A stretch of 64,000 bases of DNA from Thermoplasmata archaeon. GTDB lineage: Archaea; Thermoplasmatota; Thermoplasmata; GCA-020350865. Positions 1 to 31,747 of the stretch are shown here, piece by piece; the stretch's first letter is position 1, and each line of letters starts with the position of its first letter. Location: NCBI GenBank assembly GCA_020348445.1, contig CP070751.1, forward strand, positions 3,713,002-3,777,001, in the 5' to 3' direction. A program made the translations under genes and the position numbers. Under the pieces are notes generated by a model. That model did no database searches, was not told where the DNA came from, and was given only the letters and a program-made list of their open reading frames with translations.

Positions 1-3000
1 TTGGAGACAAACGCCACATGGCTCAACTTGAATCCCTCAACTGGAATTCTGAGCGGGATACCAAATAATACTCATGTGGGATCATACTGGGTCAATGTTT
101 CGGTGGATGATGGAAACGGTGGAAAGGATTTCGTGAACTATTCCCTTTCTGTTCTGAACGTACAACCTATTATTACAATAACACCAGATGTTACAGCCCA
201 GGAGGATTTTTTACATTCTGATAATTTTGATTGTACCGATGAGGGTCAGGGAAATATCATATATTCCCTCACCACCGATGCGACATGGCTTATGATAAAT
301 CCTTCGACAGGCCTTTTAAATGGAACACCCAATAACACCCATGTTGGCTTTTATTTTGTCAATGTCACTGTTAATGACGGAAACGGAGGAATTGACAATA
401 TCAATTACACCATCACAGTTATAAACACTCTGCCAACCATAACTACCATTCCCATTCCTGTTGTGACTCAAGATATCCCCTATCATGATGATATTGATTG
501 CAATGATGATGGCCAGGGTACAATTATATATTCAATTGCCACAAATGCCACATGGTTCTTTTTCAATTCCACTACAGGCGAATTAAATGGCACGCCAAAC
601 AATACCCATCTTGGATCGTATTGGGTGAATGTGAGTGTGACAGACGGCAATGGAGGCATGGATTTTATAAATTATTCATTGACAGTGGATGATGTAAACG
701 ATCCTCCGATTATTACTACAACAAATATCGAATTTGTAGATGAGGATTCCCTATATTCAGTTGATTACGAGTACATCGATATTGACGATCCAGTTATGAC
801 ATGGTCCTTGTACACAAATTCCTCTTGGCTAGATATCGACACAAGTACAGGTGTACTGTCAGGAATCCCACAGAACGATGATGTGGGCTCGTGTTGGGTG
901 AATGTAACTGTAAATGACGGACGAGGAGGAACCGACTACACCAACTTCACAATAACAGTGAGCAACACCCCTCCGTCCATAATAAATACCCCTATAGAAT
1001 TCACAGATGAAGATGACTTTCATTTGGATGATTTTAATTGTGACGACGATTTTCAAGGTAATATAGTCTATTCGTTTATAACAAATGCCACCTGGTTAAA
1101 TATCGATTCCTTGACTGGAATAATAAGTGGGACTTCAAACAACACCCTTGTTGGATGGTATTGGGTAAATGTATCTGTTGAAGATGGAAATGGTGGAAGA
1201 GATTCTAGGAATTATACTTTAACAGTGTACAATACACTTCCTTTGATAACCACTACACCAGAAGAGGAAGCGTTCGAGGATACTCTACACGCCGATTATT
1301 TCATGTGCATTGATGACGACCAGGGCAATATCGTTTATTCCATGAAAACAAATGCAACATGGCTTGGTTTTGTTGCCGATAAGGGCATATTAAGTGGAAC
1401 TCCATATAACACTGAAGTTGGATGGTATTGGGTCAATGTAACAGTTAACGATGGAAACGGGGGTGTGGATTCCCTTAATTATACATTGACAGTACATAAT
1501 GTGCATCCTAACATAACTACGATACCCGATGCCACTGCTTCGGAAGATATACTCCACTTGGATAACTTCGATTGCGACGACGATGGCCAGGGCAACATCA
1601 TATATTCACTTGCAAGCAATGCAACTTGGCTCAATATAGATCCCATATCTGGTGTTGTGAACGTGGTCCCAATTAATCTTTATGTGGGTGAGTACTTTGT
1701 CAATGTCTCGGTTTCTGATGGGAACGGTGGAATCGACTTTGTCAATTATTCTCTTACTGTTTTCAATACTCAACCGCATATTACCAACACACCTGATGAT
1801 TTCGCAATTGAGGACATGCTTCATATAGATGATTTTAATTGTGATGATGATGGTCAAGGAAACATCACATATTATCTTGTCACGAATGCAACGTGGCTTA
1901 ATATTGATCCTGTTGAAGGCATTTTAAGCGGCACTCCCGACAATTCTCATGTAGGTTGGTTTTGGATCAATGTCAGTGTTAATGACGGTAATGGGGGTAT
2001 TGATTACAGGAACTACACATTGAACGTGTCAGACGTCAATGATCCACCTGTTATCACCACAATAGATCTTGAGTTTGCCCTGGAGGATTCCCTTTACTAT
2101 GTGGACTATGAATACATAGATGTAGACGACACAGCAGTTTCATGGTACCGTGACTCAAATGCATCATGGCTTACCATAAACTCCCAAACTGGTGAGCTTT
2201 CCGGTATTCCTGAAAACCATGAGGTGGGATGGTGCTGGGTCAATGTGACAGTCGATGATGGCAGGGGAGGCATAGCATTCTCGAACTTCACGATCACTGT
2301 AAACAATACGCCCCCTGCGATTACCAATACACCAATTGAACTTGTTGATGAAGACTTGACGTTTTTGGATGATTTTAACAGCAATGATGACGATCAGGGC
2401 AACATAATATATTCCATGGATACAAATGCGACATGGTTTGATATTGACAACATATCGGGTGTTTTAAGTGGACTTCCCAACAATAATCATGTGGGATGGT
2501 ACTGGATTAATGTTACAGTAAGTGACGGAAATGGCGGAATAGATTGGAGAAATTATACAATTACTGTGAATAACACCGTTCCACTGATAACAACGTTACC
2601 AACACCGATTTCCTATGAGGATTATCAGTATTTGGTGGACTTTAATTGCAATGACGACGGTCAGGGTGTGATTATCTATTATCTCAATACAAATGGCACT
2701 TGGCTTTCTATAGACGACATAACAGGCACCGTGATCGGAACACCCGTAAATAATGATGTGGGCTCCTATTGGATCAACGTCACTGTCATGGATGGCAACA
2801 GTGGGATGCATTCTGTCAACTACACTCTGACTGTGAACAACACCAACGATGCCCCAATCATAACCACTGGCAATTTGGAATTTGTTGATGAGGATTCCCT
2901 GTACCTGGTTGATTATGATTATTTTGATATCGACGGTGACATGGTTTCATGGAGTAGGAGCACCAACGCATCCTGGCTTTCGATCAATGAAAGTAATGGA

Positions 3001-4365
3001 GTATTGTCAGGTAGTCCGAGAAATGCGGATGTGGGATGGTACTGGGTAAACATTGTTGTAGATGACGGTAATGGTGGTTACAATAGTACATATTTCATAA
3101 TTCATGTCAACAATACAAATGATAAGCCCTCTATTCCTGTATTGTCTTACCCTCAGGACGATTCAGTGGTTAATACAACATATCCTGACTTTATCTGGGA
3201 TGCATCCATTGATCCTGATCGCGGAGATTATATTGTAGATTACACGTTGGAGTATTCCACGAGTTCTGCTTTTACCGAGAACATAACAGTTGTCACTGCT
3301 ATAGTCGATACATCTTATGTCCCAGAGATAGAATTAATGGATAAAACATGGTACTACTGGCGTGTGGAAGCCTTTGATTCCTTGGGTGTGGGAAGTGGTT
3401 ATCAAACACCTTATTTTGCATTTTTCGTTGATATAGGATATAAGGAGCCAAGATACAAAGGAACATTGAAAAGCGCTCAAGTGAAATTTGGGGGTACTTG
3501 GAGTGTGGATTTGGATGATCATTTTATACTCGGCTCCATAACCGAGGGTCTTTCGTTCACATCAAATTACGGAGAGATCCAAATCGATCCGAAAACCCAT
3601 GTGGCAACTTGGAAACCTAAAACCAAGGATGATGTTCTTACTGATGTTGTCTTTACCATGTCAGACGGTAAAGTAGATATCAGCTCCAATCCTATAGATA
3701 TCTCAGTGGAACAGGAGAAGACCTCTTTATCCTTCCTGGAAAGAATTTACTGGCCCTATCCCTTGATTCCCATGATATTCTTTATTCTTTTGGGATGTGC
3801 ATTTGCAGTCAAGAGATATAAAGAAAGGCCTGTTGTGGAGGAAGTTTTTTTCATATCTGAAAACGGCAGACTCATTGCCCATGCATCTGTTAAGGTGGAC
3901 GAGGAGATAGACGAGGACATCTTAAGCAGTATGTTAACAGGGGTCAAGGACTTTGTTAGCGATGCATTCATAAGAGACGAGAGTATGCGGGAGGAAAAAG
4001 GCCTTCAAAAACTTGAATTTGGTGAGGAGACCATATATCTTGAAAGGGGAGAACATTTCTTTATTGCCCTCATATTCACTGGCAGGGGCATCCCACCTAA
4101 ACTGAAAGCCGTGAAGGAGGAGATTGAAAAAAGGTTTGGGGATGTACTTGAGGATTGGGACGGCGATATGAGGGCCTTCGAAGGTGCGCATGAGATCATT
4201 TCCTGGCTGTTACCTCTGGAGAAAATGACTGAAGAGCAGAAAAAGAAGCTCAAGGAAGGAAAGGGGAAGGACAAGGTATTGGAAAAATGGGAGAACATTG
4301 ATGAAGAGTTTGCTGAGGTTGACATTTCCATGGAGGAATTAAGAAAAGAGATGGGTTGGAAGTAG
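1..4365 (+). CDS. Large cell-surface protein (5'-partial): 12 cadherin-like/putative-Ig repeats, one TM helix, cytoplasmic roadblock/longin-like tail
   Basis: ~90-aa repeats W.NV.V.DG(N/R)GG; TM at IYWPYPLIPMIFFILLGCAFAV; tail EEVFFISENGRLIAH...DILSSMLTGVKDFVSDAF. Confidence 0.8.
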   Translation: METNATWLNLNPSTGILSGIPNNTHVGSYWVNVSVDDGNGGKDFVNYSLSVLNVQPIITITPDVTAQEDFLHSDNFDCTDEGQGNIIYSLTTDATWLMINPSTGLLNGTPNNTHVGFYFVNVTVNDGNGGIDNINYTITVINTLPTITTIPIPVVTQDIPYHDDIDCNDDGQGTIIYSIATNATWFFFNSTTGELNGTPNNTHLGSYWVNVSVTDGNGGMDFINYSLTVDDVNDPPIITTTNIEFVDEDSLYSVDYEYIDIDDPVMTWSLYTNSSWLDIDTSTGVLSGIPQNDDVGSCWVNVTVNDGRGGTDYTNFTITVSNTPPSIINTPIEFTDEDDFHLDDFNCDDDFQGNIVYSFITNATWLNIDSLTGIISGTSNNTLVGWYWVNVSVEDGNGGRDSRNYTLTVYNTLPLITTTPEEEAFEDTLHADYFMCIDDDQGNIVYSMKTNATWLGFVADKGILSGTPYNTEVGWYWVNVTVNDGNGGVDSLNYTLTVHNVHPNITTIPDATASEDILHLDNFDCDDDGQGNIIYSLASNATWLNIDPISGVVNVVPINLYVGEYFVNVSVSDGNGGIDFVNYSLTVFNTQPHITNTPDDFAIEDMLHIDDFNCDDDGQGNITYYLVTNATWLNIDPVEGILSGTPDNSHVGWFWINVSVNDGNGGIDYRNYTLNVSDVNDPPVITTIDLEFALEDSLYYVDYEYIDVDDTAVSWYRDSNASWLTINSQTGELSGIPENHEVGWCWVNVTVDDGRGGIAFSNFTITVNNTPPAITNTPIELVDEDLTFLDDFNSNDDDQGNIIYSMDTNATWFDIDNISGVLSGLPNNNHVGWYWINVTVSDGNGGIDWRNYTITVNNTVPLITTLPTPISYEDYQYLVDFNCNDDGQGVIIYYLNTNGTWLSIDDITGTVIGTPVNNDVGSYWINVTVMDGNSGMHSVNYTLTVNNTNDAPIITTGNLEFVDEDSLYLVDYDYFDIDGDMVSWSRSTNASWLSINESNGVLSGSPRNADVGWYWVNIVVDDGNGGYNSTYFIIHVNNTNDKPSIPVLSYPQDDSVVNTTYPDFIWDASIDPDRGDYIVDYTLEYSTSSAFTENITVVTAIVDTSYVPEIELMDKTWYYWRVEAFDSLGVGSGYQTPYFAFFVDIGYKEPRYKGTLKSAQVKFGGTWSVDLDDHFILGSITEGLSFTSNYGEIQIDPKTHVATWKPKTKDDVLTDVVFTMSDGKVDISSNPIDISVEQEKTSLSFLERIYWPYPLIPMIFFILLGCAFAVKRYKERPVVEEVFFISENGRLIAHASVKVDEEIDEDILSSMLTGVKDFVSDAFIRDESMREEKGLQKLEFGEETIYLERGEHFFIALIFTGRGIPPKLKAVKEEIEKRFGDVLEDWDGDMRAFEGAHEIISWLLPLEKMTEEQKKKLKEGKGKDKVLEKWENIDEEFAEVDISMEELRKEMGWK

Positions 4366-26809: not shown

Positions 26810-27215
26810 GACAATCCTCTCCTAATATAAAGCGTGCCGAGCATAAGGGGGACGGCTTCGTTTTCGAATTTTGAAGAAATTTGAAAACTAAGTGGGCGAG
26901 CGAAGCGAGACCACGGAGGCGCAGGCACAAGACGGTCTGGGGAGGAAGAAGGTAAGTGCAAAGGACGCAGGCCTCCGTGGAAGCTCCGGCTGAGGGAGCC
27001 CGGTTTTCCTGGGCGAACGAGGGTTGCGACGAGAGTGGGCATTTAAATCTTCAGTGATGTATAATTATGGAGCCAGGAGCAATCGGAAATGACGGTAGTG
27101 GCAAAACCTTTATCCCCGTAGAGAGATAATGGTTTTAGGGGCGAACGAGCAGGCGAATCAAACAATAGCGTAAAAAGCCAGCGCAGTGAGCGGACGGGGC
27201 TTAAAGGCGAGGGGG
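26810..27215 (+). repeat. Repeat copy F (left TIR, extra modules, B-type end)
   Basis: All central modules present; ends GGGGCTTAAAGGCGAGG. Confidence 0.92.
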
Positions 27216-27949: not shown

Positions 27950-27963
27950 ATCATTTATAATAT

Positions 27964-28103
27964 CCTGAGCAGGTAGGGGATGGCCAGCACAAGGATATAA
28001 TGGCTAGGGGAGGTATAGGAAGGGCCAAACTCCGCTTGAAATCTAGATGCACCCTCGCCTTCGATGCGTGAGCTATTTATAGCGACGCAAGCGACTGTGG
28101 AAG
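27964..28103 (+). repeat. Repeat copy G, left part (interrupted by IS110)
   Basis: CTGAGCAGGTAGGGGATGGC; GACGCAAGCGACTGTGGAAG at the junction. Confidence 0.65.
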
Positions 28104-28154
28104 ATGGTATGTTTAAATCCGCCTTCGAGATAATGTGCTCGGAGGTGCAGAAGT

Positions 28155-29138
28155 ATGCTATACGCAGGATTGGATGTACATAAAAACTTTTGTCAGGCCA
28201 TAGTAATGACAAAAGGAGGTAAAGTTGTAAAAGAAGATAAGATAGGAACGGAGCAGGAAGATATCGAAGAATTCTTTTATGGGTTGAAGAATGTAAGAAT
28301 TGCGTTTGAGGCATCGATGTATTATGAGTATGTCTACGAAATACTCAATGGATTGGGATATGAAGTATCTCTATCCCATTCATTAAAGACAAGGCTGATA
28401 GCCGAGTCAAGGATAAAGACAGATAAGATCGATGCAAAGGCACTAGCAGATTTGTTACGAGCAGATCCATTGCCAACATCTTATATCCCGCCTGAAGATA
28501 TTCGTAAAGTGAGACATTTAGTCCGTCATAGGATATTCTTAGGAAGACACCGGACCAAATTGAAGAACCATATATATTCAGAGTTGAACCATAGAAACTT
28601 GAAGTTCTGCGGTCCTGATGTGTTCACCAGGGCTGGTATGAAATGGTTGCAGGGATTAAATATCCCAGCAATTAATTCCTACTTGGTAATTTTAGATGCG
28701 GTATTAAATGAAGTAAAATCTGTAGAGTTGAAGATAAAGATTGAAGGTATGAAATATGATGAAGTAAGGTTGTTGAGCACTATACCGGGAATAGGAGTAT
28801 ATTCTGCATTGATAATCCTTTCAGAGATAGGAGACATAAATCGGTTCAGCTCTGAAGAGAAATTGTACTCCTATGCTGGAATGATACCTAGAGTCCATCA
28901 ATCTGGCGATAGTAGTTATCAAGGTAGAATCACGAAGGAGGGTTCTAAACACCTTAGATGGATCTTAGTAGAAGCACTCCGAATCCATATTCAATGTGCA
29001 CCAGATAGTAAGGTCACTCGTTATTATTATCGTCTCAAAAAGAAGAAACCAGGTAATGTTGCTACTATGGCAGGAGCAAGAAAGCTTCTTCAAGTGATTT
29101 ATCATATGTTGAAAAATCAGGATGAATATCGAGGTTAG
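28155..29138 (+). CDS. IS110-family recombinase/transposase
   Basis: DEDD motifs GLDVH, FEAS, KTDKIDA; SYAGMIPRVHQSG. Confidence 0.95.
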   Translation: MLYAGLDVHKNFCQAIVMTKGGKVVKEDKIGTEQEDIEEFFYGLKNVRIAFEASMYYEYVYEILNGLGYEVSLSHSLKTRLIAESRIKTDKIDAKALADLLRADPLPTSYIPPEDIRKVRHLVRHRIFLGRHRTKLKNHIYSELNHRNLKFCGPDVFTRAGMKWLQGLNIPAINSYLVILDAVLNEVKSVELKIKIEGMKYDEVRLLSTIPGIGVYSALIILSEIGDINRFSSEEKLYSYAGMIPRVHQSGDSSYQGRITKEGSKHLRWILVEALRIHIQCAPDSKVTRYYYRLKKKKPGNVATMAGARKLLQVIYHMLKNQDEYRG

Positions 29139-29265
29139 ATGTGCAGACCTTGAGGCGGAGCTTGCGGCATTGCGACCGCCCGTGGAAGATTAAGGTGCAC
29201 ATCTAACCAAGGACGAAGCAGCCATATTGCGGCACTATGACCGCGAATAGGAGCATGTCATAAGT
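29137..29265 (+). ncRNA. Predicted bridge/seek RNA with target- and donor-binding loops
   Basis: Two parallel units guide-GCGG-CA(N4)GA-CCGC-guide; first matches the target, second partly matches the circle junction. Confidence 0.75.
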
Positions 29266-29321
29266 GATATATACAAACGAAAATAATAAGGTATCGTAAA
29301 TTCGGGCGGATTTCACATAGA

Positions 29322-29598
29322 AGCTCCGCCCGAGAGAGTCGACGGGGCGAGCGAGGGGTTGCGACCGGCGAATATATTTGGCGACACAGGGAGCAATTCG
29401 AGTGTTCGAGGTCAGATTTTATGATCGACGCCTCGATATTCCGGACGGAGTGGCCGAAGTGGTTATATGTGATTAATGTCATAGCGGAGAGGGATACAAG
29501 CAAAGTCCCAGTTTCTGGGGCTTAGAAATGGCATGTGGACATGTCCCAACGCCATTTCCGAGGCCTACGTCCGTCTTAAAAAAAAGGAGGGGATTGTC
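29322..29598 (+). repeat. Repeat copy G, right part (A-type end)
   Basis: AGCTCCGCCCGAG...GGGGCTTAGAAATGGC...AGGAGGGGATTGTC. Confidence 0.88.
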
Positions 29599-31405: not shown

Positions 31406-31747
31406 GACAATCCCCTCCTATTAAGAAAGCGTGCCGAGCATAAGGGGGACGGCTTCGTTTTCGGATTTCGAAGAAATTTGAAAACTAAGTGGGCGAGCGA
31501 AGCGAGACCACGCAGGCGCAGGCACAAGACGGTCTGGGGAGGAAGAAGGTAAGAGCAAAGGACGCAGGCCTCCGTGGAAGCTCCGCCCGAGATAGCCCGT
31601 TTTATTGGGCGAACGAGCAGGTGAAGAAAGCAATAGCAAAATGAGCCAGCGCAGTGAGCGAACGGGGCTTAGAAACGGCATGAGGACAATATCCCAACGA
31701 CATTTCCGAGGCCTGCGTCCGTCTAAAAGAAAATGGAGGGGAATGTC
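31406..31747 (+). repeat. Repeat copy H (full length, 342 bp; contains an empty IS target)
   Basis: Both TIRs; perfect stem 31560-31572/31708-31720. Confidence 0.93.

Follow-up and report, generated by a model that had tools for sequence, protein, structure and literature searches.

Insertion sequences (ISs) of the IS1111 type have their non-coding region on the 3' side, and the seekRNA encoded there presents first the guide that is complementary to the top strand (PMC11187229). The bridge RNA of IS1111 elements lies within the right end (PMC11208160), and their subterminal inverted repeats are usually 11-13 bp long (PMC11187229), with lengths of 7-17 bp also reported (PMC11208160). The roles of the catalytic residues were described for IS621 (PMC11208158). 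Here we analyze an IS carried by a Thermoplasmata archaeon. The window, which is the whole stretch of DNA under analysis, comprises 64,000 nt of contig CP070751.1, and all coordinates are positions in it unless called genome coordinates. The IS lies on the + strand at 28104..29323 (1220 bp) and is inserted precisely inside one copy of a repeat, with a match to other copies that is far beyond chance. It is an intact IS110-family element of IS1111-like layout which, judging from its sequence, very probably arrived through RNA-guided site-specific recombination.

The first-pass annotation of this DNA had already called the element IS1111-type and compared it with IS1111-attC elements and with ISs that target REPs. 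The comparison is apt (PMC11187229, PMC11208160), and the type assignment holds by layout, as the element has a long 3' non-coding region, subterminal inverted repeats and the top-strand-complementary guide first. The same annotation had proposed that removal of 28104-29323 restores a repeat block as in a neighboring copy, named copy H, and that an AG core stands at both ends together with 9-bp subterminal inverted repeats. The sequence and the BLAST alignment through the junction bear out the former, and the latter features are read at the junctions as they had been described.

Insertion point, ends and transposase

The IS and its target comprise the following features:

27950..28103, + strand: left part of the interrupted repeat copy, which ends in the conserved block GACGCAAGCGACTGTGGAAG (28084-28103) and aligns with uninterrupted copies
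28102..28103, + strand: left AG core dinucleotide on the target side, as read at the junction; in relatives, the left flank and the right end have just a 2-nt [A/T]G in common
28104..28154, + strand: non-coding left end of 51 nt, with an 11-nt terminal extension ATGGTATGTTT followed by the subterminal inverted repeat AAATCCGCC (28115-28123)
28155..29138, + strand: transposase gene, 327 amino acids, IS110-family DEDD RNA-guided recombinase with D7, E52, D90, D93 and S250-G251
29305..29323, + strand: right end, with the subterminal inverted repeat GGCGGATTT (29305-29313) followed by a 10-nt extension CACATAGAAG that ends in the core AG
29324..29598, + strand: right part of the interrupted repeat copy, with CTCCGCC (29324-29330) as right half-target; the copy ends in GGAGGGGATTGTC (29586-29598)
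31572..31587, + strand: vacant perfect target CCGTGGAAGCTCCGCC in repeat copy H, with the crossover point at the 5' foot of a hairpin
26975..26990, + strand: CCGTGGAAGCTCCGGC, a vacant near-target whose right half has one mismatch, in a repeat copy 1.1 kb upstream of the IS

With a caret marking the crossover, the left junction (28103^28104) reads ...GACGCAAGCGACTGTGGAAG^ATGGTATGTTTAAATCCGCC and the right junction (29323^29324) reads ...GGCGGATTTCACATAGAAG^CTCCGCCCGAG. AG, in fact GAAG, immediately precedes both junctions, and there is no duplication beyond GAAG. The base at position -3 of the right end is the same as the base at position -3 of the target, hence GAAG on both sides. Once the IS is removed, BLAST aligns the emptied site through the junction with many uninterrupted copies in the genome. 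The removal restores a 26-nt block, GACGCARGCNNCYGTGGAAG^CTC, which is found 15 times in the 5.16-Mb genome, 14 times uninterrupted and once as the copy split by the IS. These 15 copies were picked by the block itself, so that only the CTC following it is an independent observation. Copy H carries GACGCAGGCCTCCGTGGAAGCTCCGCCCGAG without interruption. The exact 16-mer CCGTGGAAGCTCCGCC occurs three times in the genome, every time within a repeat copy, against about 0.002 occurrences expected by chance according to our estimate.

The subterminal inverted repeats of the IS, AAATCCGCC and GGCGGATTT, are 9 bp each, and those of the relatives L005, L085 and L086 measure 11-12 bp. The left end is conserved in L005, L085, L006 and L058. 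The terminal extensions are not those of IS1111: the IS has 11 nt on the left and 10 nt on the right, close relatives have about 9 nt and 8 nt, respectively, and in other relatives the right extension is 5 nt long. Non-coding sequence amounts to 51 nt at the left end versus 185 nt at the right end, the longer one being downstream of the transposase gene.

The transposase gene is the only long reading frame of the IS. Its product matches the Pfam domains PF01548 DEDD_Tnp_IS110 (E = 8.8e-20) and PF02371 Transposase_20 (E = 1.7e-25), and reaches 231 bits with the NCBIfam model NF033542 'IS110 family RNA-guided transposase', for which the cut-off is 140. In the alignment with IS621 (PDB 8WT6; 62.6 bits, E = 3e-16), the catalytic D11, E60, D102, D105 and S241-G242 of IS621 face D7, E52, D90, D93 and S250-G251 of the transposase, and all of them are conserved. 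Relatives with a solved structure belong exclusively to the IS110 group. The traits of the IS110 family are thus present in the IS: both domains, the catalytic residues, a 2-nt core without target-site duplication, and guides matching the flanks and the ends. A TATA-box-like TTTAAA (28112-28117) lies about 37 nt upstream of the transposase ATG, and GGAGGTG lies 7 nt before the start codon. From their sequence and position, these two motifs could be the IS's own archaeal promoter and ribosome-binding site.

The guide RNA and the sites that it reads

Directly downstream of the transposase gene we identified a putative guide RNA with its loops:

29136..29262, + strand: bridge/seek RNA of two stem-loop modules, about 128 nt, starting at the transposase stop codon; covariance-model match of 138.9 bits
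29154..29163, + strand: 5' guide of the target loop, GGCGGAGCTT, reverse complement of AAG^CTCCGCC (core and right flank) at 10/10 positions
29180..29190, + strand: 3' guide of the target loop, CCGTGGAAGAT, in the same sense as the left flank and core
29219..29255, + strand: donor loop, with a 5' side CAGCCATATT (29219-29228), a hairpin GCGG..CCGC and a 3' side GAATAGGAGCA (29245-29255)

The two modules of the RNA are parallel, each with a hairpin GCGG..CCGC, and a long outer stem closes module 1. The consensus of six sequences, which include the closest relatives that we fetched, has a two-loop structure with 9 compensated pairs. The covariance model built on this alignment matches an RNA directly 3' of the transposase gene in at least 38 loci of relatives, mostly archaeal. 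In an alignment of 29 sequences, 24 of the 28 pairs change on both sides, and the covariation score is 0.70, versus 0.19 in shuffles and 0.04-0.12 in controls with slid partners. The paired cells amount to 93.2% versus 64.2% in shuffles, a fraction that is inflated because this alignment (A3) was fitted to the model. Given the slid controls and the many pair types, we consider the predicted RNA structure secure despite the flattered paired fraction. Across the whole window, no Rfam family scores at or above its gathering threshold. The RNA is probably part of the transposase transcript or processed from it.

The guides of the target loop read both sides of the insertion point. The reverse complement of the 5' guide, AAGCTCCGCCT, matches the site A-AG^CTCCGCCC at 10 of 11 positions. 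Within the 3' guide, CCGTGGAAGA matches the left flank, the core and the first base of the IS; the match is 8 nt long at the occupied site (GTGGAAGA) and 9 nt long in copy H (CCGTGGAAG). The guide order is that of IS1111, with GGCGGAGCTT, the complement of the top strand, ahead of CCGTGGAAG in the RNA. In the donor loop, the 3' side ATAGGAG (29248-29254) corresponds to the right end of the IS, ATAGAAG (29317-29323), with one G·T position. The donor-loop region is 92.5% identical to that of L005 over 94 nt.

These matches suggest how the IS would have been inserted. The 5' side of the target loop would pair with the top strand of the core and right flank (AAG CTCCGCC), and the 3' side with the bottom strand of the left flank and core (..GTGGAAG). 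The donor loop would read the right end (ATAGRAG) and the left end (ATGG) across the junction of the excised circle, an intermediate in which right and left ends are joined and whose predicted junction is CACATAGAAG-ATGGTATG. The DEDD/serine recombinase would then exchange strands at the AG core, leaving AG on both sides and no duplication.

The two target guides read parts of the repeat that differ in conservation. The left guide reads the most conserved block of the repeat module, which is invariant and present in 15/15 copies, and the copies retrieved by BLAST show the same picture; the repeat is cut precisely where this 23-nt conserved block ends. The hairpin whose 5' arm is read by the right guide differs in sequence among repeat copies. 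Few copies can therefore be targeted: CTCCGCC is carried by only four, and the genome holds three perfect vacant sites and two with one mismatch. By sequence, about 4-6 of the 15 repeat copies would be good targets, one of which is occupied. The single-strand fold of the target region is no better than that of shuffles (z = +0.8), so that any structural claim is limited to the local hairpin.

We extended the comparison of guides and flanks to the relatives. Their right ends were located independently, from the donor guide. A guide-flank score in fixed register under-counted the matches because the loop length varies by 1 nt, and we used instead the longest exact run together with cross-pairing controls. 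An exact run of at least 7 nt between the 5' guide and the element's own right-end junction was found in 11 of 24 distinct elements, as compared to 3 of 552 cross-pairings. The 3' guide corresponds to the left flank, core and A in the IS, L005, L054, L020, L055, L094, L052 and L006, and likewise in three copies of the same-class genome G041 and in L207. The relatives L085 and L086 (55-56% identity) occupy unrelated AT-rich sites, which are matched by their own guides.

The three G041 copies (L168, L170 and L173) are those of an IS that is 40% identical to the present one and whose RNA has the same architecture. They sit in a short repeated intergenic motif, CTCGGAAAAGNCNATAGG^RAGGAAAGGC, of which a vacant copy is found in the right flank of L173. 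BLAST detected no homology between this motif and the repeat of the present genome. Given the G041 copies, repeat targeting seems common in the clade.

Distribution of the element and traces in the repeat family

The IS is single-copy in its genome: searches by DNA, by protein and by covariance model returned no further copies or solo RNAs, and the only match of the covariance model is the RNA of the IS itself. The protein query found no match in 4/4 genomes of the same genus, and at E <= 1e-100 it matched three of 400 sampled genomes of the same class (50-58% identity). GatE encoded in the window and the named homologues of the transposase point to an archaeal host. The closest proteins, P0002 (91% identical) and P0003 (87%), come from other metagenomes, and P0004-P0009 are 70-76% identical. 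Viral contigs gave no match to the donor-loop region or to the target block.

The repeat family is found in all four same-genus genomes, two of which contain the exact 14-mer target; a search of one further genome of the order returned no copy. A search for end scars in the same-genus genomes returned two pattern matches, both within coding sequence and hence due to chance. When we searched these genomes (G001-G004) for an orthologous empty site, only repeat modules matched and the cargo genes were not in common.

The metagenome contig L005 carries the relative that is nearest among the contig matches listed (67% amino acid identity). Its donor loop is retained and its target loop differs (GCTCCTCCCCT and CACGGTGTGA). 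The right flank of L005 belongs to the same repeat family and is 90% identical to window positions 26940-27140. The junction, TG^GGGAGGAAGAAGG, lies about 45 nt upstream of the IS site within the repeat, and the L005 guides match this site. The two flanks (L005:1-656 and L005:1883-2987) are not contiguous DNA: the right one is a repeat module, and the left one contains a gene for a PEP-utilising-enzyme-like protein that is truncated about 100 amino acids early, while the homologue here runs on for about 100 amino acids. Where the gene is cut, the left flank reads GGTGTG, with GG.. as the probable continuation by homology, and so resembles the repeat target. This contig reflects either rearrangement by the IS or an assembly that is chimeric across IS copies, and we counted only its right flank as evidence.

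A second trace of the same kind lies in the genome under study, where a 20-nt right-end scar, GGGCGGACTTAACATAGATG, is found at genome positions 1870107-1870126. The scar has exactly the sequence of the L005 right end, consists only of subterminal repeat and terminal extension, and directly adjoins GGGAGGAATAAGG of a repeat copy. On its other side, the scar is preceded by non-repeat sequence that follows a GNAT-like gene. In total, the repeat family bears three insertion traces at two positions (the IS, the right flank of L005 and the scar), and the matching guide loops agree with them.

These data bear on two further proposals of the first-pass annotation, namely that the repeat supports a dedicated parasite and that it is therefore a functional site. 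The former is partly supported, at the level of the lineage. The three traces at two repeat positions, with matching loops, speak for it; the single copy, the absence from the 4/4 same-genus genomes searched, the three vacant perfect sites and the insertion of 55-56% identical relatives in unrelated AT-rich sites speak against it. The latter does not follow: because a programmable guide RNA needs only a multicopy sequence that tolerates insertion, targeting by the IS is silent on repeat function and gives no proof of it. It is also conceivable, albeit improbable, that the IS lineage is a specialized parasite of a genus-specific cassette-junction repeat, re-programming its guide among positions within it and thus corresponding in archaea to the IS1111-attC elements, and that the recombinase may help to rearrange the array. 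Two hints of array rearrangement come from the module boundary TG^GGGAGGA, exactly where both the scar and the L005 insertion lie with the left module missing, and from the origin of the two L005 flanks in non-adjacent DNA.

Alternative explanations, genomic setting and known systems

Several points weigh against RNA-guided arrival. One base of the occupied site is mismatched with the 3' guide (CTGTGGAAG versus CCGTGGAAG), and the complementarity of the 5' donor guide to the left end is limited to ATGG. Between the right end and the donor guide a single position differs; it can be read as a G·T pair and could be a tolerated wobble or the trace of an earlier exchange. In 13 of the 24 relatives the longest guide-flank run is at most 5 nt; some of these short runs come from crude end-calling, and others may reflect off-target copies. 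The fit of alignment A3 to the model, which raises the paired fraction, belongs here too. We infer, wholly from DNA, that the RNA is transcribed and that a circular intermediate with its junction forms; activity at the present day and the order in which strands are cleaved are inferences as well. Finally, the IS is present in a single copy although three perfect sites are vacant, so that its present activity is unproven.

The alternatives fare worse in our judgment. Before 2024, the insertion of IS1111-attC and REP-targeting elements was explained by recognition of the folded repeat by the protein. Applied to this locus, the transposase itself would recognize the folded or hairpin repeat, and the complementarity in the 3' region would be incidental. 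The position of the crossover at the 5' foot of the hairpin in vacant copy H and the resemblance of the left end, TCCGCCTTCGAG, to the right flank, TCCGCCCGAG, are compatible with such recognition. However, the guide loops of relatives shift with the flanks at unrelated, unstructured targets such as the AT-rich TTTG^TTTGTT, and the hairpin here folds no better than shuffled sequence (z = +0.8). RNA guidance has moreover been experimentally shown for both IS110 and IS1111 types (PMC11208160, PMC11187229), and we regard recognition by the protein alone as very improbable. Chance insertion into intergenic DNA that tolerates it, with no preference for the repeat, deserves hardly any credence: the guide-flank matches are 10 nt and 8 nt long, the cut coincides with the border of the 23-nt conserved block, and the repeat family also bears an independent relative and a scar, even if one copy provides no within-genome statistics of insertion sites. 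The guide-flank matches and the comparison of own junctions with cross-pairings effectively refute it.

Nor does the IS appear to be carried by a larger composite mobile unit to which the flanks would belong, instead of occupying a pre-existing site. Beyond the modular nature of the repeat nothing favors such a unit, the probability of which we deem negligible; the 14 uninterrupted copies, which read straight through the junction, and the IS ends common to relatives with unrelated flanks effectively refute it. A further possibility, which we consider unlikely but weightier than the others, accepts RNA-guided arrival and holds that the IS is now dormant, or is a recently imported single copy with no lasting association with the repeat. 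The guide match would then be due to the presence of this repeat family in the donor organism, itself a close relative. This would fit the single copy, the failure to find the IS in the four same-genus genomes and in most of the 400 class genomes, the vacancy of three perfect and two one-mismatch sites, and the origin of the closest proteins (91% and 87%) in other metagenomes. The reading frame, the catalytic residues, the ends and both guide loops are, on the other hand, intact and mutually consistent, and the L005-type scar in the genome argues for repeated exposure of the repeat family to the IS lineage.

The IS lies within a cassette-like array (window 18500-47300), in which modular copies of the repeat stand between accessory genes that are unrelated to each other and mostly have the same orientation. 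The array encodes BNR and beta-helix surface proteins, antitoxin-like and PIN_2 proteins, Fic, two GNATs, radical SAM, TIR/NDT-like and GH114 proteins. The repeat has inverted termini, GACAATCCCCTCC and GGAGGGGATTGTC, and further clusters of it are found near 1.22-1.24, 1.87, 2.38, 4.22 and 4.28 Mb of the genome. Elsewhere in the window, positions 67-3078 hold twelve tandem units of 267-273 nt that are 63-74% identical in DNA sequence within a long coding region, which looks like a large repetitive surface-protein gene.

The IS is a clean but ordinary example of the known RNA-guided mobile elements that home to repeats. Target guides, donor guides, core and ends are all readable from the sequence, with an RNA of only about 128 nt, and the clade of at least 38 mostly archaeal loci with strong covariation is useful for comparing bridge-RNA architectures. 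It also offers a case of natural re-targeting, as the 67%-identical relative keeps the donor loop and aims elsewhere in the same repeat family. The IS also provides an independent marker of the cassette array around it.

Among described elements, IS621 of the IS110 group (PDB 8WT6; PMC11208158) shares with the IS the catalytic D, E, D, D and S-G residues, the 2-nt core and the two-loop RNA logic with guides pairing to opposite strands. In contrast, IS621 encodes its RNA upstream of the gene, within the left end, has a CT core instead of [A/T]G, and has a protein that is only distantly similar to the present transposase. A further likeness is to ISEc11, ISKpn4, ISPst6 and ISPa11 of the IS1111 group (Siddiquee et al. 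2024, PMC11187229; Durrant et al. 2024, PMC11208160) in the DEDD and Tnp_20 transposase, the long downstream non-coding region, the subterminal inverted repeats, the guide order, the precise insertion without duplication, and the natural re-programming of guides between relatives of about 70% identity. Unlike that group, the IS has an archaeal host, a subterminal repeat of 9 bp (11-12 bp in relatives) and extensions of about 11 nt on the left and 8-10 nt on the right, as compared to 7 (or 6) and 3 in IS1111. The loop that holds its donor guides is a simple internal one, built as a mirror of the target loop, unlike the multi-loop arrangement of many bacterial IS1111 elements.

With regard to the target, the IS resembles IS1111-attC elements, such as ISKpn4 and ISPst6, and the REP-targeting IS621, ISPa11 and ISPpu9 (PMC12288879). 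All use a multicopy palindromic intergenic target between cassettes or genes, which is cut at the foot of a hairpin, and have guides that match only a subset of the repeat copies. The copy number is one here versus seven for ISPpu9. In place of an attC (55-140 bp) or a REP (about 35 bp), the IS occupies a modular element that is specific to the genus, measures 340-440 nt and belongs to a cassette-like array of an archaeon. Since that target is the junction repeat of such an array, the resemblance to IS1111-attC elements is best read as an analogy and not as membership.

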